From: an uncultured Bdellovibrionales bacterium
GTDB taxonomy: Bacteria; Myxococcota; XYA12-FULL-58-9; JALHOP01
NCBI GenBank assembly: GCA_964484195.1
Contig: CAZAER010000001.1
Coordinates: 1,215,754 to 1,279,753 of the forward strand
DNA length: 64,000 bases
Direction: 5' to 3'
This document shows positions 265 through 56,836 of the stretch, piece after piece. The number at the start of each line of letters is the position of its first letter. Within the stretch, counting starts at the first letter, position 1. Position numbers and translations under genes: made by a program. The notes beneath the pieces were generated by a model. That model did no database searches, was not told the origin of the DNA, and saw only the letters and a program-made list of their open reading frames with translations.

Positions 265-481
265 GGGGCCGTCGGATTGAGCTCCTGCGGCTCGCAGAGC
301 AGTCGCTCCAGCGGCAACGAGCGAGCCCTTGGTCCAACGCATCAAAGCGCGGCTCGTCGAGACCGGATGTCGCGCGAGACCTGCGGCTCCACTCGCCAAG
401 GCCTTACCGAAGCCCACCGGGTCGGTACGATCGAGCACTTCATCCGCCACGCGTCGCAGTCCATCGCGCATTGTCATCTCC

Positions 482-2452
482 CTAGCTCCCAGCAGGCTGG
501 CGAGACTGCCGCCTGCGCTTCAACGATTCGAGCGCCTGGCGCTGCGTGTCGAACAACTGTGGATCCACGCGATGCGCTTGCAACGACGCGCCGAGCTTGA
601 GGCGCATGAAGGCGCTCGAGGTGTAGCGCGTGACGCGTTCGTAGTAGCGCTCGGTGAGGTCGCCGACGAGCGCCGCATAAGTGTCGGCGAGGTGGGCTGG
701 TACGCTGAATCCGTCATAGTCGACGACGGCGCGGACACGGCGGCCGAGCGGCTTGCACACCTCGGCGACGGCTTCTCCGATGCGGCGGATGTCGTCTTCG
801 CTGCGCAAGGTGAGACCGGCGAAGTTGATGAACAGGACCTCGCGCTCGGCGTCGTACTCGAAGCGCGACGCGAGCGGCCGCTCGTCGAGCGAAGCACGCA
901 GGCCCATCGGCGCGGCCAGAAAGATCCGCGGGTCCATGCTCTTCAAGGGCTGTTTGATCTCCGGCACGAAGTCCATTTGCCCCAAGACATCGCGCTGGAG
1001 GTCGACACCGGGCGCGATCTCTTCGAGACACAAGCCGGCGTCGGTGAGCCGAAACACGGCACGCTCGGTGACCACCATCGTCTCGTGTCCGCTTTCGCGG
1101 GCCTGAGCGGCGCTGAAGGTCACTTGCTCGACCGCTTTGACGAACTTGCGGTTACGCCCCTCTTCGAGGATGTGCAGACGGCCGCCGCCGATCGCGAGCT
1201 TCAAGCCGCCGCAGGTGAACGTGCCGACGAAGACCACCTTACGCGCGTTCTGGCTGATGTTGATGAAGCCACCGCAGCCCGCGAACGTCGAGCCGAAGCG
1301 GCTGACATTGACATTACCGGTGGCGTCGACTTCCGCCATGCCGAGGTAGGCCTGATCGAGCCCACCGCCGTCGTAGAAATCGAACTGCTGACTTTGATCG
1401 ACGAGCGCTTCGTTGTTGGTGGCGGCGCCGAAGTTGAGGCCCGACGCAGGCAAACCGCCGATGACCCCGGGCTCGGCGGTGAGAGTGACGAGGGGCAAGA
1501 GTCCCTCTTCGGCGGCGACACCGGCGACGGACTCGGGCATGCCGATGCCGAGATTGATGACGGTGCCGGGCACCAGCTCGCAGGCGGCGCGTCGTCCGAC
1601 GACCTTGCGCGCATCCAAAGCGAGCGGCGGTACGCTCTCGAGCGCGACGCGTAGCTCTCCGGAGAACGCCGGACTGTAAGGGGTGGCGTACGTCTGAGCG
1701 TGGTACTCGGCGGGCGCGACGGCGACGCAATCGACCAGAGCGCCGGGGATCTTCACGCTGCGCGCGGGGATCGAGCCGGCCTGAGCCAAGCGCTCGACCT
1801 GCACGATGACGACTCCCCCGCTGTTCTTCGCCGCCATCGCCATTGCCAAGTTGTCCAGAGTGAGCGCCTCGCGCTCCATACTCACGTTGCCGTAAGGATC
1901 GGCGGTGGTACCGCGCAGGAAAACGACGTCGATGGGAAAAGCGCGATAGAGCAGCCAGTCTTGTCCGTGCATGCGCACGAGCTCGACGAGATCGTCGGTG
2001 GAGCGCGCGTTGACTTTGCCGCCGCCACGACGCGGATCGACGAAGGTGCCCAGACCGACCCGCGATAGCGTACCGGGCTTTCCCGCGGCGATGTCGCGAT
2101 AGAGGTGCGAGATGCACCCTTGCGGCAGGTTGTAAGCCTCGATGTCGCCGGCCAGCGCCAAGGCGCCGACCTTCGGGATGAGCCCCCAATGTCCGCCGAT
2201 GACGCGCTTGAGCAGACCAGGCGCCGCCAGCCGGTTGAGGCCACGCGTTTTGCCGTCACCCTGCCCCGCCGCGAACACCAGCGTGAGCCCTTCGGGTCGC
2301 TGGTGCGTGGCGTGGGCGCGGGCAAGTGCTTCGAGCAAGCCATCGGGCGTACCGATGCCGACGAACCCCGAAGTCGCGAGCGTGTTGCCAGGCTGGACCA
2401 AGGCCACGGCCTCGTCGAGGCTCGCGACCTTGTTCACCGACGTCAACGCCAT
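482..2452 (-). CDS. Acyl-CoA transferase, acetyl-CoA hydrolase/transferase family (propionate/acetate CoA-transferase-like).
   Basis: The 656-aa ORF has an N-terminal CoA-transferase-like region (ASLDEAVALVQPGNTLATSGFVGIGTPDGLLEAL, GGHWGLIPK) and sits inside the PHA cluster. Its antisense partner ORF 329..1654 (+) is Ala/Arg-rich and is an artefact. Confidence 0.6.
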   Translation of the reverse strand: MALTSVNKVASLDEAVALVQPGNTLATSGFVGIGTPDGLLEALARAHATHQRPEGLTLVFAAGQGDGKTRGLNRLAAPGLLKRVIGGHWGLIPKVGALALAGDIEAYNLPQGCISHLYRDIAAGKPGTLSRVGLGTFVDPRRGGGKVNARSTDDLVELVRMHGQDWLLYRAFPIDVVFLRGTTADPYGNVSMEREALTLDNLAMAMAAKNSGGVVIVQVERLAQAGSIPARSVKIPGALVDCVAVAPAEYHAQTYATPYSPAFSGELRVALESVPPLALDARKVVGRRAACELVPGTVINLGIGMPESVAGVAAEEGLLPLVTLTAEPGVIGGLPASGLNFGAATNNEALVDQSQQFDFYDGGGLDQAYLGMAEVDATGNVNVSRFGSTFAGCGGFINISQNARKVVFVGTFTCGGLKLAIGGGRLHILEEGRNRKFVKAVEQVTFSAAQARESGHETMVVTERAVFRLTDAGLCLEEIAPGVDLQRDVLGQMDFVPEIKQPLKSMDPRIFLAAPMGLRASLDERPLASRFEYDAEREVLFINFAGLTLRSEDDIRRIGEAVAEVCKPLGRRVRAVVDYDGFSVPAHLADTYAALVGDLTERYYERVTRYTSSAFMRLKLGASLQAHRVDPQLFDTQRQALESLKRRRQSRQPAGS

Positions 2453-47676: not shown

Positions 47677-48399
47677 CTAGCGGCCGAAGCGGCGGCGGAG
47701 CTCTTCGGCGACGTCGCGCAGCTGGCCTGGGACGTTCCGGAGCTCTTCCGCGGCCTCGCGCAGCTTGTCTGGGACGTTTCCGAGCTCTCCCGCAACCTCG
47801 CGCAGCTTGTCCGGGACATTCCCCAGCTCTTCCGCGACATTGCGCAGCTCGCGCTCGGCATCGCCGAGCTTCTCTTGAGCGACCCTGACGCCGGGCGCGA
47901 TCGCCTCTTCGACCTGGCGCTTGAGCTTCTTGGCCTCACGCGCGGCAAGGATGGCAGCGTCTTCGGCGCTGTCCTTGAGCTCCTCGAGGGCCGTGCGCGC
48001 ACCCGACTGCAACAAGAGTTGGTCGCGGATGGCGTTGCGAAGCTCGGTCGCAATGGCCACACCCTGCAGCGCCGCCTGGCGAGCTTGCGGACGGGCCATG
48101 GTCAGCTTCTGGTCACCCATGGTGCCGGAGTAGTGAGCGCGAACCTCTTTGCCATCGACCGTCACTTCGTAAGGGCGTGGGCAGGAGAAGCCGAAGCGAA
48201 GCGCCTCGAACGTGTGCTCGCTATTGGACGCGCCCTTCTTGGTCATGGCGGCGAGCTTGGCGTGCTCGTCGACGCTCTTGCTGGCGCGTTGGAGGTCGTG
48301 GCGGGTGACGGCGCCATCCAAGAGGCGAGTGAGCATGGGCTGATCCCAGAGGCCGTAGCTGATGGCTTTATAGGTTACGTCAAGCAGTCTGTCGGTCAC
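47677..48399 (-). CDS. Hypothetical coiled-coil protein with C-terminal tandem 11-residue repeats (phasin-like appearance).
   Basis: A GTG start at 48399 gives TDRLLDVTYKAISYGLWDQ. The C-terminus repeats ELRNVAEELGNVPDKLREVAGELGNVPDKLREAAEELRNVPGQLRDVAEEL. Confidence 0.55.
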   Translation of the reverse strand: MTDRLLDVTYKAISYGLWDQPMLTRLLDGAVTRHDLQRASKSVDEHAKLAAMTKKGASNSEHTFEALRFGFSCPRPYEVTVDGKEVRAHYSGTMGDQKLTMARPQARQAALQGVAIATELRNAIRDQLLLQSGARTALEELKDSAEDAAILAAREAKKLKRQVEEAIAPGVRVAQEKLGDAERELRNVAEELGNVPDKLREVAGELGNVPDKLREAAEELRNVPGQLRDVAEELRRRFGR

Positions 48400-48520: not shown

Positions 48521-49141
48521 TTAGGTCGCGGGCGGCTCGAGGCTGACGTGTGCGGCCTGGCGCGCCTGTGACGCCAGGACGGCACGAATCTCATCGGCGC
48601 GTCTCAGCAGGGCGAGAATGGCGTCTTCATGCTCGGACTTGGCGCGCTCGCGCGACCGCGTCGCGGCGCTCTGGTTGTACATCTGCAATAGATACGCACC
48701 GGCGCAAAAGACAATCACCCCGATGATGAGCCAGGGGCTGACCGCAAACCCGAGAAAAGGCAGCATGCTCACGAGCGTCCCCACGACGCCCCCGAGCGTG
48801 AGCGCACCGTTGAGGACCGCCGGCGGGATCGGGTCTTTGGCTGGCTCGAGCAGCGTGTTCGACGTCTGGCGAAGGCGGTCGACTAGGCGGGTGGAGGCGG
48901 GATCGGTCGCGACGACCCGAGCGGCATCATCGATCTGCGCCCGCAACACCGCGTGCGACATGAACTGCGCGCCGGCAGCTTGGGCAAGCCTCGGCGCTTC
49001 CGTCGGGGACAACATGTCCGGGAGCCCATCGGCCTCGAGCACCTGGGTTGCGTACTCCAGGCCGTACGCCGCGTCCGGAGCGGGCGCGACCGGCAAAGGG
49101 CTTTGCACACCAGGTCCGTATCCGGGGCTCGGCGTTACCAT
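48521..49141 (-). CDS. Membrane protein, hypothetical.
   Basis: An ATG at 49141 (MVTPSPGYGPG...) is preferred. The ORF-track start at 49264 (MVFRKWWLPPF) is a translation of the palindromic repeat array. A C-terminal TM helix (LVSMLPFLGFAVSPWLIIGVIVFCAGAYLL) is present. Confidence 0.5.
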   Translation of the reverse strand: MVTPSPGYGPGVQSPLPVAPAPDAAYGLEYATQVLEADGLPDMLSPTEAPRLAQAAGAQFMSHAVLRAQIDDAARVVATDPASTRLVDRLRQTSNTLLEPAKDPIPPAVLNGALTLGGVVGTLVSMLPFLGFAVSPWLIIGVIVFCAGAYLLQMYNQSAATRSRERAKSEHEDAILALLRRADEIRAVLASQARQAAHVSLEPPAT

Positions 49142-49230
49142 CGCGGCATCCCCCTGCAGGAGCTGGACGGCTCCCGCCCGTGTATTTTCGGGGGTTTGTG
49201 CAGCGCAGTTGCGGACTACTTCGCCACGAT

Positions 49231-49328
49231 TAAATGGTGGCAGCCACCATTTTCGAAAGACCAATAAATGGTGGCAGTCACCATTTTCCTAAATGGTGGC
49301 TGTCACCATTTTCGAGTCACCATTTTCG
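49231..49328. repeat. Tandem array of three full copies plus one half copy of a 22-bp AT-rich palindrome AAAATGGTG(A/G)C-NG-(C/T)CACCATTTT.
   Basis: Seen directly: aaatggtggcagccaccattt (49232-49252), aaatggtggcagtcaccatttt (49266-49287), aaatggtggctgtcaccatttt (49291-49312), and a half site gtcaccattttc (49316-49327) that contains the DUF938 stop codon and encodes its C-terminal RKW*. Confidence 0.85.
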
Positions 49329-49910
49329 GAAGACGAGCATGAAGTTGTTGGCCGGCATGGGGACGCGCTCGGCAAGCTGCAGGCCGTGCTCGGCCGCTGC
49401 GGACACGACCTCATTCACGTCACGCACACCCCAGTCTGGATTGCGCGCGCGCAGGCTGGCATCGAACTCTTCGTTGCTCGGCGCGGTGTGGCGGCCGTCG
49501 ACTTTGTAGGGTCCGTAGGTCACGAGCGGCGCGCCGGGCGCGAGAACGAGGCCGGCGCCACGCATGAGACCCGCGCAGGCGGCGAACGGAGCGATGTGGA
49601 TCATGTTGCTGCACAGCACCGCGTCAGCACGCTCGACCGGCCACGACGGTGACGCGGCGTCGAGCACGATCGGCGGGTTGACGTTCGCGAGGCCGCTGTC
49701 GGCCAGATGGGCGGCGATGCTCGCGATACCGGACTGGGCGATGTCGGTTGGCTGCCAGGTGAGGTGTTGCACCTTGGAGGCGAAGTAAACGACGTGCTCG
49801 CCGGACCCACTCGCGACTTCGAGGACGAGCCCACTTCGTGGGAGCACGCGCTGAAGAACGGCGAGGATGGGCTCGCGGTTGCGTTGGGTTGCTGGGGCGT
49901 GTTGCTTCAT
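49317..49910 (-). CDS. DUF938-family class I SAM-dependent methyltransferase-like protein.
   Basis: The N-terminus is MKQHAPATQRNREPILAVLQRVLP, the SAM-binding Gly motif is VLEVASGSGEH, and the ORF is 197 aa. The last codons and the stop lie inside a palindrome half site. Confidence 0.75.
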   Translation of the reverse strand: MKQHAPATQRNREPILAVLQRVLPRSGLVLEVASGSGEHVVYFASKVQHLTWQPTDIAQSGIASIAAHLADSGLANVNPPIVLDAASPSWPVERADAVLCSNMIHIAPFAACAGLMRGAGLVLAPGAPLVTYGPYKVDGRHTAPSNEEFDASLRARNPDWGVRDVNEVVSAAAEHGLQLAERVPMPANNFMLVFRKW

Positions 49911-50215
49911 CGCTGCTCTCGGACCCTACAATGAATGACCGCCATCGCGGAGTCATCGGGGTTGTACATCGGGTCGTCGGGCGTGAAGGCCGATTCGAGC
50001 CGGATGTTGCTCATCTTGGCGATCGCCCAGAGCTTCCCGACGCCCATGGTCGACGAGGCGCTTCCGCCCCCCGTCTGCACGCCCCGCAGCACCTCGGCTC
50101 CCGCGGAGCTCGTCCCGTGGCAATAGGGCTCGACGACGCGGTGAAAGCCACCGTAGTCGAACGCCAAGCGGCGTCGTTCGCGGATCGCTCTGCAGACTAG
50201 CGCATGCTCCAGCAC
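49907..50215 (-). CDS. Small protein with a WYL-like motif.
   Basis: There is an ATGA overlap with the DUF938 gene. RLAFDYGGFHRVVEPYCHG resembles the WYL-domain core. The ORF is 102 aa. Confidence 0.4.
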   Translation of the reverse strand: MLEHALVCRAIRERRRLAFDYGGFHRVVEPYCHGTSSAGAEVLRGVQTGGGSASSTMGVGKLWAIAKMSNIRLESAFTPDDPMYNPDDSAMAVIHCRVREQR

Positions 50216-50243
50216 GGCATTGACTCGCTAAAACAGACAACGA

Positions 50244-50548
50244 CTACTGCCAGACGATGGGACTCTCCCCATCATCGAGCACATTGGAGCAATCACTTGC
50301 GCATTGGTCGACCACGACCGAGCAGGTCAGCCCAGCGATGCAGCCGTAACAACCGTCGACGGCATCTTTGTACGCCGCCTCGTCGTGGTAGCGCGCCTCG
50401 CAGCGATCCTCGCACGCGAGCGGATCGAACTCTGCGTCGTAACAATTGCGATAGGCGAAGCAAACTGCGTCGCAATGCGACTCGACCTGCTTGGCGCAAG
50501 CCACGAGCAACAAGGCGAGAGAGGTAATCAGGCGGAGCACGGAGGCCA
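50244..50548 (-). CDS. Small Cys-rich lipoprotein.
   Basis: A GTG at 50548 gives (M)ASVLRLITSLALLLVACAKQ (lipobox). The mature part has 12 Cys. The start is uncertain. Confidence 0.4.
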
Positions 50549-50711
50549 CATGCCACGAGGGTTTCGGTCGTTTCAACCTCTGCGGGGCGTCTCCTAAAAC
50601 GGACCACCCCGGCAACTGCCCCAAATTGCCCCACTCCGATCCCGAAAAATCTGCACATCTCCACAAAACTTAACTTGAAATCCCCCTACTCCGTGCGAAA
50701 CCGTTACGCGC

Positions 50712-52136
50712 GTGACTAGACCAAGCAAACTCCGCCTTGCTCCAGTTCTCATCTTCACCTCGTTCCTCCTCGCCGCCCCCGCGCGTGCAGAGGTCAACTG
50801 GAACATTCGCCTCGAGGGCGGTGTCGCCTTCCCGTTGAGCGCGCCACAAAAGCGCCTCTTCGATCTCGGCGGTGACGGGCAGCTCCGTGTCTCACTCGAG
50901 GCCGCGAGCTTCTTCGACATCTACGCGAACGGCGGCTTCCTCGGGCTCACTGCCGACGACTCGAATCCCGACCAAGACCTCGGCACCGCGTGGAACGTCG
51001 GTGGTGGTATCCGCTTCAAGCGGCCGTACCGCAGCGGCATCGTGTCGCCGTGGATCGATGGCGACCTCGGTTGGTACCGCACCGATGACCGCAATCGCAT
51101 GGGCTTCTCGGTTGGCGCCGGTTTGCACTTCCCGATCGGTGAGAAGCGGCACTTCCGCATGGGACCGTACGTTCGCTACGCGCAGATCATCCAGCGTGAA
51201 GACGCCGCGACCGGTCTCGATGACGCCGACGCGAGAGTCCTGATCGCCGGCTTGTCGCTCGAGGTGGGCGGTGCGCCGAGGATGGTCCCGAAAGATCGCG
51301 ACGCTGACGGCATCGTCGATCCGTCCGACGGTTGCCCGGATCAGGCCGAAGACCGGGACGGCTTCCAAGACACCGATGGCTGCCCCGACCCGGACAACGA
51401 TGGTGACGGCGTGCTCGACGCTGCCGACAAGTGCCCCGGCGAGGCCGAAGACAAAGATGGCTTCGAAGACGCCGACGGTTGCCCCGAGGCGGACAACGAC
51501 GGCGACGGCGTCACTGACGCGAACGACGGATGCGCGTTCCAGCCCGAAGACAAAGACGGCTTCCAAGACGAAGATGGCTGTCCCGAGGCCGACAACGACG
51601 CTGACGGCGTACTCGACGCCGATGACAAGTGCCCGCTCACGGCCGGTACGGTTGGTAGCGGTGGCTGCCCGGACCGCGACGCTGACCTGATCGACGATCA
51701 GCACGACGATTGTCCCGACGCCCCCGGCCTGCCCGAGAACAGGGGCTGCCCGGTCTACAAAAACGTCACGGTGAGCGACACGCGCATCGAGATCAAAGAG
51801 AAGATCTTCTTCGCCTTCGGCAAGGCGCGGATCCTTCCCAAGTCCTTCCCGATCCTCAGCGAGGTCACGAGGGTCATCAAGGATCACCCGACGCTGCGTA
51901 TCCGCGTCGAGGGTCACTCGGATTCGGTCGGCAACGCCAAGCGCAACAAGAAGCTCTCACAAGAGCGCGCTGAAGCTGTGCGCGAGTACCTGGTGAAGGC
52001 CGGCGTCGCCCCTGAGCGTCTCACCGCGCAGGGTTACGGCTCCGAGCAGCCACTCGAATCCAACAAGACACCGGCGGGCCGTGAGAAGAACCGTCGCGTC
52101 GAGTTCGTCATCTTGAACCAGCAGGTCACGCAATGA
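50712..52136 (+). CDS. OmpA-family protein with thrombospondin type-3 (TSP3) Ca-binding repeats.
   Basis: The signal peptide is followed by a beta-barrel-like N-terminus, then repeated DGCPD..DND/DGD..D motifs, then a C-terminal OmpA/MotB peptidoglycan-binding domain (RVEGHSDSVGNAKRNKKLSQERAEAV). Confidence 0.85.
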   Translation: MTRPSKLRLAPVLIFTSFLLAAPARAEVNWNIRLEGGVAFPLSAPQKRLFDLGGDGQLRVSLEAASFFDIYANGGFLGLTADDSNPDQDLGTAWNVGGGIRFKRPYRSGIVSPWIDGDLGWYRTDDRNRMGFSVGAGLHFPIGEKRHFRMGPYVRYAQIIQREDAATGLDDADARVLIAGLSLEVGGAPRMVPKDRDADGIVDPSDGCPDQAEDRDGFQDTDGCPDPDNDGDGVLDAADKCPGEAEDKDGFEDADGCPEADNDGDGVTDANDGCAFQPEDKDGFQDEDGCPEADNDADGVLDADDKCPLTAGTVGSGGCPDRDADLIDDQHDDCPDAPGLPENRGCPVYKNVTVSDTRIEIKEKIFFAFGKARILPKSFPILSEVTRVIKDHPTLRIRVEGHSDSVGNAKRNKKLSQERAEAVREYLVKAGVAPERLTAQGYGSEQPLESNKTPAGREKNRRVEFVILNQQVTQ

Positions 52137-55100
52137 AGCGCCTAACACTCGCGTTCCTCGTAGGTAGTGTCTTCACTGTCGGGTGCGGCCAGCGCCTCGT
52201 CGACCTGCCTCCGGTTGATGACGACAACGACAACCCGCCGGTGCCGGCGATCTCGAGCCTCGCGCCGCAGCGTGGTGCGACCGCGGGCGGGACCTCCGTG
52301 GTCATCACGGGCACCGACCTGAACGGCGCCACGAGCGTGACCTTCGGGAGTGCAACGGCATCGTTCACCGTCAACTCGAGCACGCAGATCACCGCGCTCT
52401 CACCTGCGGGCACGGGAAGCGTCAATGTTAGCGTCACGACGCCTGGCGGCACGAGCAACGCCCTGCCCTATGCCTACGGCGATGCGCCGCTGATCACCGG
52501 CATCACGCCATCGTCGGGTCTCGTCGCCGGCGGGACGACAGTCGTCATCACCGGGTCCGCTTTTGCGAACGCGAGCAGCGTCACCTTCGGTGGCACCGCG
52601 GCGACCTCGTTCACCGTCAACTCCGCCTCGCAGATCAGCGCCGTTACGCCGGCTCACGCCGCCGGCACCGTGCCGGTCGTGGTCACGACGCCTTTGGGAG
52701 CCAGCAACGTCCTCACCTTCACCTACGGTGAAGTGCCGCAGCTCGTAAGCATCGCGCCGAACCTCGGGCCAACGGCCGGTGGCACCGTCGTCACGCTGAC
52801 CGGCGACCATCTCACCGGTGCGACCACGGTCACGTTCGATACCACCGCGGTGACGACGCTCACCGTCGTGAACGACGAATCCGTTACCGTCGCGGCTCCC
52901 GCCCATGCCGCCGGCGTCGTAGCGGTCACCATCACCACGGCCTTCGGCACGTCCGCTTCAGTGGACTTCACCTATGGCGTCGCACCGACCCTCACGTCGG
53001 CGACTCCGCCCTCGAGCCCAACCGCGGGCGGCATCAACGTCGTCCTCGCCGGCACGAACCTGACCGGCGCCACCGCTGTATCGTTCGGCTCGACACCGGC
53101 GACGTCGTTCACCGTCGACAACGACGCGCAGATCACCGCCGTCGCACCGGCGGGCACGAGCTCGGTCAACATCACGGTGACGACGCCGTTCGGCACGAGC
53201 GCAGGCTTGCCCTTCGGGTATGGCGACGCGCCGATCCAGAACACCCTCAATCCGACGCGCGGTCTCGTGGCTGGTGGCTTGTCGGTCACCATCACGGGCG
53301 ACAACTTCACCGGCGCGACGTCGGTCACCTTCGGCGGCACAGCGGCCGCATCGTTCACCGTCGACAGCGACACGCAAATCACCGCGGTGACCCCAGCGCA
53401 CGCGGCTGGCGCCGTCGATGTCGTGACGACCACGCCCGATGGCTCGAGCAACGCACTCGCGTTCACCTACGGCGTCACGCCCGCGCTCACCACCGCGGTC
53501 CCAAATTTCGGGCCGACCGGCGGCGGCACGTCCGTCGTCCTCACTGGCACCGACTTGCTCGGCGCCACGGCGGTCACCTTCGGCACCGTGGACGCACCGG
53601 GCTTCGTCGTCGACAGCGCGACACAGATCACGGTGGATTCGCCAGCCGCGAGCGCAGCAGGTGACGTGCAGATCACTGTGACCACACCGTTCGGCACGAG
53701 CAGCGGCGTCACCTTCACCTATGGGAACGTGCCCGCGATCACGCTGCTCGCCCCGGCGGTAGGTCCGCTCGGCGGCGGCACCAGCGTGGTGATCACCGGT
53801 ACGGATCTCACCGACGCAACGGCCGTGTCCTTCGGTGGCGTCGCGGCAACGTCATTCGTCGTCGACAATGACACCCAGGTCACCGCCGTATCGCCCGCCG
53901 GCACCGGCGCCGTGAACGTCACCGTGACGACACGTTACGGCACGAGCAACACCCTGCCCTTCGCTTACGGCGACGCGCCGACTGTCGGTTCATTGACCCC
54001 CGCGCTGGGCCTCACTGCGGGCGGTAACAACGTGACCATCACGGGCACGAATTTCACTCCCACCGCGACTGTGCTCTTCGGGACCACGTCGATTCCGAAT
54101 GCCAGCTTGACGGTCGTCTCGCCCACCCAGATCGACGTGACCGCTCCAGCGGACACCGCGGGCGGGAAGAGCGTCACCGTAACGACAGAGTTCGGAACGA
54201 GCAACGCAGCCACCTACACGTACGGGATCGCGCCCAATCTAACAGGCATCAGTCCGCTCAACGGCCCGGCCGCGGGCGGTACGACCGTTACGCTCACCGG
54301 CACCAATCTCAACAATGCGCTAGCCCTCACCTTCGGCGGTACGCCCGTCCCGTTCACCCCGGTCGACGCATCGACAGTCACGTTCGTGACGCCGACGGCC
54401 AGCGCCGGGCCCATCACTGTTCAACTCACCACCTCTTATGGCTCGTCTAGCATCTCATTCACCGCCGTCGACGCGCCGACCATCAGCTCGCTCGACATTA
54501 CTGTCGGCCCGACCACTGGCGGCACGACGGTCACGATCAGCGGCACGAACCTCGCGACGACGACTGGCGTCACGTTCGGCGGCGTGGCCGCGACGGGCCT
54601 CCTCATTGGCGGCGAGACGTCGATCACAGTGACGACACCTGCGAATGCCGCGGGTAGCGTCGATGTCGTGGTCACGACCGCCGGCGGGTCCGTGACTCAG
54701 ACCGGAGGATTCGTTTACGCGGATTCGCCGAACGTCACTCTCGTGAACCCCAATGTCGGCGTAGAGGCTGGCGGCGAGACCGTGACGCTCACGGGCTCGG
54801 GTTTCCTGGGTGTCACCAGCGTGACTTTCGACGCCATACAGGCCACGAACATCAACATCATCGACGACACGCAGCTCACGCTGACTACGCCGGCGCATAT
54901 CGCGGGAACCGTTGATGTGGTGGTGACGAACCCCGCGGGGAGCACGACCGTGTCGGGTGGCTTTACTTACGAGCCGCCGACGCCTGGAGTCACTACGGGA
55001 TTCACCAACGTCGGACCGTTCGTGTTGACGGGGACGAACCTCGATTGGCTTGGCACCACTGCGGCTGCCTACAGCGTCTTCTTCTGTCTTGGCGGCGGTT

Positions 55101-55261
55101 GCGTGCTCGACACGACCTCAGTCCCGCCAAGCGGCCCCATCACGGCGACGACGTTCGAGGTCCTCGGCGGCACCGTCAGCGACTCGACCTGGGCCATCTG
55201 CCCCGCGTCCGCCGCAACGTACGACCCGGTGGTCTGCACCAATGAGCAGGTCGTGCCGTAG
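52133..55261 (+). CDS. Surface lipoprotein made of about 12 tandem IPT/TIG domains.
   Basis: There is an ATGA overlap with the OmpA gene. The lipobox is FLVGSVFTVGCG. An approximately 85-aa unit (I..L.P..G...GGT.V.ITG..L.GAT.VTFGG..A.SF.V...T.I.A..PA.) repeats throughout. Confidence 0.85.
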   Translation: MKRLTLAFLVGSVFTVGCGQRLVDLPPVDDDNDNPPVPAISSLAPQRGATAGGTSVVITGTDLNGATSVTFGSATASFTVNSSTQITALSPAGTGSVNVSVTTPGGTSNALPYAYGDAPLITGITPSSGLVAGGTTVVITGSAFANASSVTFGGTAATSFTVNSASQISAVTPAHAAGTVPVVVTTPLGASNVLTFTYGEVPQLVSIAPNLGPTAGGTVVTLTGDHLTGATTVTFDTTAVTTLTVVNDESVTVAAPAHAAGVVAVTITTAFGTSASVDFTYGVAPTLTSATPPSSPTAGGINVVLAGTNLTGATAVSFGSTPATSFTVDNDAQITAVAPAGTSSVNITVTTPFGTSAGLPFGYGDAPIQNTLNPTRGLVAGGLSVTITGDNFTGATSVTFGGTAAASFTVDSDTQITAVTPAHAAGAVDVVTTTPDGSSNALAFTYGVTPALTTAVPNFGPTGGGTSVVLTGTDLLGATAVTFGTVDAPGFVVDSATQITVDSPAASAAGDVQITVTTPFGTSSGVTFTYGNVPAITLLAPAVGPLGGGTSVVITGTDLTDATAVSFGGVAATSFVVDNDTQVTAVSPAGTGAVNVTVTTRYGTSNTLPFAYGDAPTVGSLTPALGLTAGGNNVTITGTNFTPTATVLFGTTSIPNASLTVVSPTQIDVTAPADTAGGKSVTVTTEFGTSNAATYTYGIAPNLTGISPLNGPAAGGTTVTLTGTNLNNALALTFGGTPVPFTPVDASTVTFVTPTASAGPITVQLTTSYGSSSISFTAVDAPTISSLDITVGPTTGGTTVTISGTNLATTTGVTFGGVAATGLLIGGETSITVTTPANAAGSVDVVVTTAGGSVTQTGGFVYADSPNVTLVNPNVGVEAGGETVTLTGSGFLGVTSVTFDAIQATNINIIDDTQLTLTTPAHIAGTVDVVVTNPAGSTTVSGGFTYEPPTPGVTTGFTNVGPFVLTGTNLDWLGTTAAAYSVFFCLGGGCVLDTTSVPPSGPITATTFEVLGGTVSDSTWAICPASAATYDPVVCTNEQVVP

Positions 55262-55292
55262 CGATGCATCACCCGTGCTGATCGGGGCGCGC

Positions 55293-55503
55293 CTACGTGC
55301 CCCGACCCGCGCTATTCGACTCATCGCATAGCTTGCACTCGAGCATCATCCCGAGCCGCGCCGCCCGCCCTTCCTCGGTCGTGACCCACTCGCGCACAAT
55401 CCACGGCGGCTTGTGACGCACATGCTGTGCGTGTCCGCACACGAGCTCGGCGACCCAGTCGCCTTCCTCGTCGCGGTGGTAGCCGATGATTGCGCGTTCC
55501 ATC
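55293..55503 (-). CDS. DUF3565-like small protein.
   Basis: The ATG at 55503 gives MERAIIGYHRDEEGDWVAELVCGHAQHVRHKPPW... (69 aa). The ORF-track extension to 56081 is Arg/Ala junk antisense to the MTase. Confidence 0.65.
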
Positions 55504-55514
55504 AGGTTCTTCGG

Positions 55515-55537
55515 AAAATGGTGACTGTCACCATTTT
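55515..55537. repeat. Single perfect copy of the same palindrome, AAAATGGTGACTGTCACCATTTT.
   Basis: Seen directly at 55515-55537. The TGA stop of the upstream MTase (55538-55540) abuts it, and the DUF3565 ATG lies 11 nt away on the other side. Confidence 0.85.
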
Positions 55538-56380
55538 TCAGGTGGGCTCGAGCCGCGCGTAGCCCATCATCTCGCGGATGGCGTCGCGTGCGCGGCGAGG
55601 CAGCACCGCATGCACCGGACTGAACCACCACGGTAGCGGCAGCGGCCGTCCGAGTCGCTCTCCCTCCACCGGAAGCGGGCGCTTCTCGGCGACCCGCCAG
55701 CCGCGCGCGGCAAAGAAGCTCTCCCACGCGTGCGGCTGGAAGCGGAAGGGAGCATTCTTTAGCGGATTCGGGCCGGCCTGGCGGACGCGGACGGCGCGGT
55801 TGAGGAACGAAGCACTCCAGTCGACGATCCACTCGGTGATGCGCTGATGCGCGCGGAGCTGGCGGGCCAGGGCCCCGACCTCGGCTTCGGCCAGGTACAT
55901 GAGCACGCCCTCCGTCAGCACCAGGGCGTCGCGATCGGGAGGCACCGAGGCGAGCACCACCTCGATCACTCCGGGGTGCGCGAGATCCGCGACGATCCGC
56001 CGGAGCCGACAGCGTGGCTCCTCGCGCGCCAGCAGCGCCTCCTTGTGCTCGATGATCTTTGGCACGTCGGCTTCGATCCACTCGAGCGACGAAGGCAGGT
56101 CGAGCCGGTAGGGTCGCGTGTCGAGGCCGGCGCCGAGGTTCAGCACAGTGCCGACGCCGCGAGCAATCGCCTCACGCACGAGCTCGTCGATCACCGCGGT
56201 GCGCACCACTGTCATCCAGTGGAACTGCTCCGCACCGACCATGGTGCGCGCGAGATGCACGCCCTTTTCACCGGCGAGCCGAGCGGCAAGCGGGTCTTGG
56301 AAGAGCGCGCTCTCGCGAGCGCGGTAGGCGGCGATCCACAGAGCGGTGTCGGCGACATCCTCGATCTGCGGATCCGTCAT
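55538..56380 (-). CDS. Class I SAM-dependent methyltransferase (leucine carboxyl methyltransferase / TcmP-like family).
   Basis: The SAM motif is VLNLGAGLDTRPYRL, the N-terminus ALWIAAYRARES is LCM-family-like, and the ORF is 280 aa. Confidence 0.8.
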   Translation of the reverse strand: MTDPQIEDVADTALWIAAYRARESALFQDPLAARLAGEKGVHLARTMVGAEQFHWMTVVRTAVIDELVREAIARGVGTVLNLGAGLDTRPYRLDLPSSLEWIEADVPKIIEHKEALLAREEPRCRLRRIVADLAHPGVIEVVLASVPPDRDALVLTEGVLMYLAEAEVGALARQLRAHQRITEWIVDWSASFLNRAVRVRQAGPNPLKNAPFRFQPHAWESFFAARGWRVAEKRPLPVEGERLGRPLPLPWWFSPVHAVLPRRARDAIREMMGYARLEPT

Positions 56381-56386
56381 GACCCC

Positions 56387-56836
56387 TCACCCGTCTTTGA
56401 TCTCTGCCTCGACCAGCTGCGCGAGCAGCGTCAGCGACTCTTGCCACCCGAGATAACATGCCTCGGCCGGAATAGCGCTGGGAATGCCCTCTTGAACCAC
56501 AGTCAGCTCCGTCCCACAGAATACCTGCTTCAGTGCGATCGTGGTCATCATCTGACCCGGCAGGTTCGGATCATCGAATTTGTCGGTGTGCTTGATGCGC
56601 TGGTTGGGCACGAGCTCGACGTACTCGCCGCCGAACGAATGGCTGTGCCCGGTCGTGAAGTTCGTGAACGACATCTTATAGGTGCCCCCCACCTCGGCCT
56701 TCAGATGGTGCACCTTGCCGGTGAACCCGTGCGGCGGCAGCCACTTGGACATGGCGTCGGCATCGAGAAAGGCGCGGTAGATGCGCTCGGGCGGGGCTTT
56801 GAGGACGCGGTGCAGCTTGACGGTGTTCTCGGGCAT
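56387..56836 (-). CDS. SRPBCC-superfamily protein (AHSA1/Aha1-like).
   Basis: AAGGAG precedes the ATG at 56836 (MPENTVKLHRVLKAPPERIYRAFLDADAMSKWLPP...). The ORF-track N-terminal extension is Arg/Lys junk. Confidence 0.75.
   Translation of the reverse strand: MPENTVKLHRVLKAPPERIYRAFLDADAMSKWLPPHGFTGKVHHLKAEVGGTYKMSFTNFTTGHSHSFGGEYVELVPNQRIKHTDKFDDPNLPGQMMTTIALKQVFCGTELTVVQEGIPSAIPAEACYLGWQESLTLLAQLVEAEIKDG

Follow-up and report, generated by a model that had tools for sequence, protein, structure and literature searches.

A widespread AT-tailed palindrome behind two methyltransferase genes of an uncultured Bdellovibrionales bacterium is probably a mobile repeat served by a tyrosine transposase

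A stretch of 64,000 nucleotides (the window) from an uncultured Bdellovibrionales bacterium (contig CAZAER010000001.1, positions 1,215,754 to 1,279,753, of assembly GCA_964484195.1) carries, behind two methyltransferase genes, a short palindrome that an earlier note on this DNA had described as three and a half tandem copies at one site and one copy at a second site. Our analysis confirmed both, at 49232-49326 and at 55515-55537, respectively. Full copies of AAATGGTG-N-C-W-G-N'-CACCATTT are located at 49232-49252, 49266-49286, 49291-49311 and 55516-55536, and zero copies are expected by chance according to dinucleotide-preserving shuffles of the window sequence. The two-base centre (C-NG) originally assigned to the palindrome had to be revised, as this literal pattern has no match at all; the re-derived dyad consists of two arms of 10 nucleotides around a single-base centre (10+1+10), extended to 11+1+11 at 55515-55537. 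Two estimates of guanine plus cytosine (GC) content also changed: the window has a GC content of 65% and not of 70%, and the units, by our own count, range from about 35 to 48% instead of lying below 40%. When up to five mismatches were allowed, no further copy was found in the whole 64-kb window, and the density in the source, by window scan, amounts to two loci per 64 kb.

The array begins with a perfect 10+1+10 palindrome (unit 1, 49232-49252; AAATGGTGGCAGCCACCATTT), followed by unit 2 (49266-49286; AAATGGTGGCAGTCACCATTT) with the inner pair G..T on the plus strand, unit 3 (49291-49311; AAATGGTGGCTGTCACCATTT) and a half unit (49316-49326) that corresponds to the right arm GTCACCATTTT and belongs to a 14-nt direct duplication of GTCACCATTTTCGA, present 1.9 times at 49302-49328. 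The resulting 3.5 units are oriented head-to-tail and do not alternate, and TRF and repeat finding gave array periods of 34, 25 and 14 nt. The solitary unit (55515-55537; AAAATGGTGACTGTCACCATTTT) is found 6.2 kb from the array and its flanks are unrelated. An Rfam scan over the array returned only sub-threshold microRNA-like noise.

Both loci are read from the minus strand. At the first locus, a small open reading frame (ORF) of 102 codons without Pfam family (49907-50215) overlaps by 4 nt with the gene for a DUF938 S-adenosylmethionine (SAM)-dependent methyltransferase (49317-49910; Pfam E = 1e-74), whose 3' end enters the repeat array, and downstream of the array there is a gene for a 206-aa hypothetical protein with a hydrophobic segment (48521-49141), for which the public gene call begins about 175 nt past the DUF938 stop. 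The pairing of the 102-aa ORF with DUF938 is also kept in the homologous locus L119 (L-numbers denote loci fetched from other genomes or metagenomes for comparison). At the second locus, an AHSA1/SRPBCC gene (56387-56833; E = 2e-28) is followed by a gene for an LCM-family (TIGR00027-type) methyltransferase (55538-56380; E = 4e-29), by the solitary unit and by a DUF3565 gene (55293-55502; E = 2e-31), the start codon of which (ATG, 55500-55502) is situated 13 nt downstream of the unit. These Pfam matches bear out the identities proposed for DUF938, LCM, SRPBCC and DUF3565, whereas the label 'WYL-like' given to the small protein of the first locus finds no support in Pfam.

All units in the window lie between called genes, the sole overlap being that of the half unit with the last DUF938 codons. 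The DUF938 stop (49317-49319) is inside the half copy and the closing codons AAA-TGG-TGA (...K-W-stop, read on the minus strand) are repeat sequence, while the LCM stop (55538-55540) is immediately adjacent to the palindrome; the earlier statements that a methyltransferase TGA lies inside or flush with the motif and that a half site encodes the end of DUF938 are therefore correct. It had also been suggested that insertion of the palindrome created the 3' ends of these genes. This is the case for the last W-stop of DUF938 only, as alignments with homologues show C-termini of normal length for both proteins, FR(K/R)x for DUF938 and GYARLEPx for LCM, the latter intact in the window as ...GYARLEPT. 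Therefore, neither methyltransferase is truncated by the repeat, and at most the last one or two DUF938 codons were replaced by it.

In homologues from other genomes, of DUF938 (84, 79, 77 and 68% identical) as well as of LCM (65% identical), the 3' ends are free of the unit. The last codons are CTT-CGA-AAA-TCT-TAG in the closest DUF938 homologue and TTC-CGA-AAA-TGG-TGA, followed by the array, in the window, and from this comparison the repeat junction falls right after CGAAAAT. Several units are preceded by (T)CGAAAAT (window 49222-49335), and the repeat-free DUF938 homologue at L114 (4575-4595) ends with ...CGAAAATCTTAG. The array may have grown through duplication of a junction that included host sequence, and the recurring CGAAAAT junction could represent a target preference. 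About 70 kb of sampled Myxococcota-like DNA contained no copy. As far as such alignments go, they support a lineage-specific presence of the unit, with insertion unproven.

Public genomes, one per species, were scanned with the exact pattern, which specifies 18 bases; the counts are lower bounds. The pattern was encountered at no fewer than 111 loci from many phyla. We calculate a chance expectation of 3e-12 per position at 65% GC and, therefore, the copies in high-GC genomes are not due to chance. Among the matches listed, several metagenome-assembled genomes (MAGs) of Burkholderiales type have at least 4-6 perfect copies each. The Actinomycetes MAG MFD09368.bin.1.228 has at least 18 perfect copies, there in the form of a 31-nt palindrome, TGAATAAATGGTGCCWGGCACCATTTATTCA, with stop codons on both strands (L004, L014, L026, L030, L031, L033, L036, L040, L046, L049, L061, L066, L075, L077, L078, L090 and L111). 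Further hosts are Usitatibacter, Acidobacteriota, Planctomycetota, Gemmatimonadota and others. Some low-GC genomes match as well, and single matches there may be due to chance. In Tissierellaceae (about 30% GC; L054, L067, L074 and L105), the core forms part of a longer palindrome, aagtatcaAAATGGTGCCWGGCACCATTTtgatactt; the palindrome family, or a look-alike, extends to low-GC Firmicutes.

Since the flanks of the copies are unrelated, the repeated unit is limited to about 21-25 nt. Which bases form its inner pair N/N' depends on the lineage (A/T, C/G or T/A), and the two are usually complementary. Clusters with tandem and partial copies are also present in L044, L045, L064, L068, L085, L086 and L110. 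Among 49 distinct variants, both sides have changed at 5 of the 9 stem pairs and 91% of the cells of this comparison remain paired. Covariation was considered as decisive proof of a hairpin and rejected, as a dimeric protein that binds double-stranded DNA gives equal symmetry.

The placement of 88 copies in high-GC loci relative to genes was determined with a crude gene caller based on GC content at third codon positions. Sixty-two copies were intergenic, among them 18 between convergent, 28 between co-directional and 6 between divergent genes, and a further 19 contained the stop codon of the upstream gene, either as T+AA at the left edge of the unit or as the TGA of GGTGAC. Only 4 copies were gene-internal and 3 overlapped the 5' end of a gene, such that 81 of the 88 are intergenic or touch nothing else than a stop codon. 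Ten genes immediately upstream of units encode, according to Pfam, EF-P, a thiolase, a glyoxalase, PEP carboxylase, RNase R, GloB, a GST, a CBS protein, QueF and an Fe-S protein. When 0.8 Mb of repeat loci were searched by tblastn, no homologues of six window proteins were found beside units; a DUF938 homologue was absent from these loci and one weak LCM-like match was located about 2.6 kb from the motif. The ending ...KW, which results from AAA-TGG-TGA of the repeat, occurs in DUF938 (FRKW; window 49317-49328), in the Fe-S protein (...ILKKW) and in GloB (...RNKW) (L013 near 1245, L059 near 465), and other copies supply a TAA at the left edge of the unit. This distribution is that of a repetitive extragenic palindromic (REP)-type repeat and not that of an operator.

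In five loci, the palindrome stands on either side of a gene for an HUH/Y1 transposase of about 218-231 aa. Three of them belong to Burkholderiales-type MAGs: L086, where a 231-aa ORF (301-996, minus strand) is bracketed by two unit doublets in inverted arrangement, L064 (3298-3987) and L048 (5476-6132), the latter two with homologues that are 61-73% identical to the L086 protein. The other two genes are from Usitatibacter (L016, 5697-6404; 40% identical to the L086 protein) and from Solibacteraceae (L047, 4220-4912; 34% identical). Also, in L034 (Helicobacteraceae) a fragment of such a transposase gene is placed between two copies, and altogether a transposase gene was seen in 6 of the at least 111 repeat loci. 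No transposase was detected within the 8-kb blocks around the copies of Actinomycetes MAG MFD09368.bin.1.228. Among the matches listed, the top protein-database matches to the transposase profile were of Burkholderiales type only.

The L086 protein matches Pfam Y1_Tnp (1.9e-13), its best NCBIfam match is REP_Tyr_transpos (REP-associated tyrosine transposase, RAYT) with 67.5 bits, and the closest solved structure is that of TnpA-REP from E. coli (4ER8). In the alignment, NHVHLL (with the HUH motif NHVH), LWE(G/S)R and Y(I/M)(E/D)LNPVRA are conserved, and these motifs and the length of 218-231 aa are in agreement with subclass 2.1 of TnpA-Y1 in Table 1 of PMC6006769 (median 238 aa). In 5 of 5 proteins, the tail ...RGRP(R/K)K-MV(T/S)(V/D)TI is encoded by the 3' palindrome unit itself and, therefore, enzyme and repeat overlap physically.

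For a test in the reverse direction, 80 metagenomic loci were fetched by transposase profile and their flanks were scanned simply for perfect palindromes. Relatives at 44-63% identity carry sister palindromes of the same architecture on their flanks: AAATGGGGACAG(A/T)CCCCATTT on the flanks in L122, L123 and L125 and elsewhere in L138, AAATAGGG.C.G.CCCTATTT in L121, L124, L127 and L184, AAATGGGGACGTACCCCATTT in L161, and AATCGGGG...CCCCGATT in L131 and L165. Di Nocera et al. (2013; PMC3733652) described the motif GGGGWSAS in inverted repeats on the flanks of TIRYT genes. The sister units GGGGACAG (L122, L123, L125 and L138) correspond to this motif, and the window family, GGTGRCWG, has one mismatch to it. 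The core and the relatedness of the enzymes are uncoupled, as enzymes that are 30-40% identical (L086, L016 and L047) share the GGTG core and enzymes that are 54-64% identical to that of L086 (L121-L127) carry GGGG or AGGG cores. The association between palindrome and transposase is clear for this clade and is not universal. Just downstream of a RAYT homologue in L137, there is a 65-nt composite palindrome (2695-2759), in which a spacer separates two inverted units of GGGG type and which looks like a REPIN-like doublet.

We consider it probable (about 0.8) that the palindromes are REP-like repeats, i.e., short non-autonomous hairpins, mobilised by a transposase of RAYT Group 1, also called subclass 2.1 (TIRYT). 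The element in the window would then be the GGTG variant of the REP-like repeats of these enzymes. Among the options raised in the earlier note, a mobile repeat similar to REPs or to bacterial interspersed mosaic elements (BIMEs) is the one that the data favor, as the units are dispersed, extragenic and clustered and flank Y1 (RAYT-type) genes. The narrower proposal, that AAATGG(T/G)G...C(A/C)CCATTT hairpins are the cognate REPs of RAYT Group 1/subclass 2.1, is tentative and in our judgment falls a little short of even odds. Group 1 is the largest and most widespread RAYT group, and the 16-mers flanking its genes are modestly repeated (Bertels et al., 2017; PMC5581495). The 18 bases at the core of the GGTG version are near-identical in Pseudomonadota, Acidobacteriota, Actinomycetota, Planctomycetota, Myxococcota and others, also where the flanked enzymes are only 30-40% identical; if these hairpins are indeed the cognate REPs of Group 1, either the recognition code between enzyme and hairpin is unusually constrained or interphylum transfer has occurred repeatedly, and a substrate would be ready for the biochemistry of the uncharacterised Group 1.

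Several observations weigh against this assignment to RAYT Group 1. The NCBIfam RAYT score of 67.5 for the L086 protein is under the cut-off of 80, and tblastn revealed no such transposase gene within the 64-kb window. In the reverse test, no more than about a dozen of the 80 loci had a perfect palindrome and most had none. Quentin et al. (2018; PMC6006769) reported no REPs beside subclass 2.1 genes. Canonical REP hairpins have at their foot a conserved 5' tetranucleotide, GT[AG]G (PMC6006769), whereas the units (AAATGGTG...) show neither GTAG nor GTGG there. The symmetric changes in the stem suit a dimeric protein on double-stranded DNA equally well as a hairpin. Finally, no homologous locus keeps the downstream gene of the window, and hence there is no clean empty-site comparison.

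Of the known systems, TIRtrons with their TIRYT enzymes (PMC3733652; PMC6006769; PMC5581495) are similar: they have the motifs NHVH, W[EQ] and YIELNP (or Y[IV]HLNP), a median length of 238 aa as compared to about 230 aa here, and a wide and patchy host range. As here, the TIRtron gene has inverted repeat units on its flanks, sometimes overlapping with its ends, and some TIRYT repeats are described as self-complementary in part or throughout, of moderate abundance and grouped in dimers or clusters (PMC3733652), which again is like the situation here. Unlike the TIRtron motif GGGGWSAS, the window family reads GGTG(A/G/C/T)C(A/T)G, and its dyad is complete, with 21-23 bp and A/T tails. Some TIRYT enzymes possess a C-terminal extension similar to a helix-turn-helix (HTH) domain (Bac_DnaA_C, HTH_23 or HTH_28), whereas Pfam detected no C-terminal HTH in the L086 protein, Y1_Tnp being its only match; group 2.1.2 has been described as heterogeneous at the C-terminal end (PMC6006769).

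Canonical REPs and BIMEs with their TnpA-REP (RAYT Groups 2 and 3; E. coli, Pseudomonas and Stenotrophomonas) are, like the palindromes studied here, short, extragenic and clustered at the 3' ends of genes, and in a REPtron the Y1/HUH transposase gene is bracketed by repeats, as it is here. Classic REPs amount to more than 100 dispersed copies per genome. REPs affect the 3' ends of mRNAs, and similar side effects are likely for the palindrome units. However, the unit is AT-tailed and a nearly perfect dyad whereas the canonical REP is G+C-rich with a bulge, the array in the window is head-to-tail whereas BIME units alternate, and the core is near-identical across phyla whereas canonical REPs are species-specific. 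Elements of the IS200/IS605 family (TnpA of IS608 and ISDra2) have in common with the present system the Y1/HUH catalytic core and, presumably, the recognition of a hairpin on a single strand. There, hairpins and transposase gene form a single multi-copy element and move jointly, whereas here the hairpin alone is repeated, and their enzyme signature is 'Y---Q', in contrast to the class-2 signature 'Y---NP' found here. The exact palindrome was not found in the text or examined supplements of REP/RAYT papers, including PMC3733652, PMC6006769 and PMC5581495, and a literature search by sequence string gave only primer matches and other noise.

Alternatively, the palindrome might have been spread by an agent other than RAYT/TIRYT, such as another transposase, a palindrome-targeting insertion sequence or template-switching during replication, and might have homed beside the transposase gene. 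Such an agent would account for the lack of a RAYT in the window and in the blocks from the Actinomycetes MAG, which is the richest in copies, for the small share of repeat loci with a transposase gene (6 of at least 111) and for the lack of a perfect flanking palindrome in most metagenomic relatives. However, random sampling of repeat loci should meet a single-copy transposase in no more than a few percent of cases, two-sided flanking recurs in three divergent lineages with enzymes that are 30-40% identical, sister enzymes carry sister palindromes and the C-terminus of the transposase is encoded by the repeat, and we regard this explanation as unlikely. The units might instead be bidirectional intrinsic terminators, as the earlier note had also considered, kept purely by selection and without any mobile element. 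On either strand, each unit does read as a 9-11 bp stem between an A-tract and a T-tract, the 3' ends of genes are where copies are located, and the folding energy is -45.7 kcal/mol (z = -5.9) for the array RNA and about -10.7 kcal/mol for a single unit. Yet this makes the single hairpins only moderately stable, each stem contains no more than 3-4 G-C pairs, with 4 U behind it, and only 1 of 5 units passes a simple terminator scan, the other 4 failing it; by consensus scan, terminator-like sites in the region are no more frequent than in shuffles. Termination requires no particular stem sequence, which leaves the identity of 18 bases across phyla and the link with Y1 transposases unexplained, partial units and 14-nt duplications are not expected under selection for termination, and the copy at 55.5 kb is only 13 nt ahead of the next start, inside an apparent operon. 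As a secondary effect of the units, termination is possible; as the reason for their existence, it is quite improbable.

A third proposal of that note is that the palindromes serve a dimeric transcription factor as operators of a small regulon, with cooperative binding to the 49.3-kb array; both methyltransferase operons would then belong to this regulon. The proposal draws on the perfect dyad, which is typical of dimer sites, on the symmetric covariation, compatible with a dimer, and on the position of both window loci after a methyltransferase gene and before another gene. It is very unlikely, as copies elsewhere are mostly past stops or between convergent genes, with divergent spacers in 6 of 62 intergenic cases, and their neighbours are unrelated housekeeping genes, with no DUF938 homologue and one weak LCM-like match in 0.8 Mb of repeat loci. 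Multiple copies per genome (at least 18 in one MAG) and the flanking of transposase genes are further points against operators, and an adjacent transcription-factor gene, which had been looked for in this connection, was not found by Pfam among the neighbours, where the small upstream ORF lacks a match to a DNA-binding family. That the copies resemble each other by chance, or stem from a single segment duplicated locally and nowhere else, can practically be dismissed. The 25-nt and 14-nt periods of the array are indeed local duplications, but the flanks of the solitary copy, at a distance of 6.2 kb, are unrelated, shuffles yield an expectation of 0 and more than 100 loci exist in other genomes, which rules out a recent local duplication as the source of all copies.

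For the REP-like repeat mobilised by a RAYT Group 1 enzyme, the route to the present arrangement can be outlined by analogy. As for TnpA-REP of E. coli and for IS200/IS605 (PMC8266576 and PMC6006769), the unit would fold into a hairpin on single-stranded DNA and the transposase would recognise, cut and rejoin the folded hairpin. Copies would then spread to, or survive only in, short spacers past stop codons, and repeated events or local slippage might give rise to head-to-tail clusters and partial units such as those at 49.2-49.3 kb. When transcribed, the unit of A-tract, stem and T-tract may act as a predicted 3' stem-loop that stabilises the upstream mRNA or weakly terminates it.

For annotation, this means that the sites are to be labelled as repeat elements and not as regulatory sites. 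The methyltransferase context of both loci is best read as incidental and their common layout as a coincidence, and the 'shared layout' carries no functional message. Host genes regularly gain stop codons from the repeat (TAA, or TGG-TGA giving '...KW*'). A searchable hairpin sequence is now tied to RAYT Group 1/subclass 2.1, the DNA substrates of which are poorly defined in the literature examined, and it could be used in cleavage assays in vitro and for repeat annotation in high-GC soil bacteria.

Some other features of the region were noted. The AHSA1/SRPBCC protein of the second locus (window 56387-56833, minus strand) shares 71% identity along its entire length with an ORF of a Betaproteobacteria MAG (L106, 3113-3553), a value that is unusually high between phyla and may reflect horizontal transfer. 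Two tandem repeats are located within coding sequences. One of them, a 42-nt (14-codon) repeat with 3.6 copies and 83% identity (window 47698-47870), is contained in an ORF (47677-48399, minus strand) whose product shows repeated ...ELGNVPDKLRE... segments and belongs to no Pfam family. The other, a 99-nt repeat in 3 copies (window 51342-51634), is part of an OmpA/TSP_3-type gene (50712-52136, plus strand), which is followed by a gene for a 1042-aa protein of TIG/IPT repeats (52133-55261).

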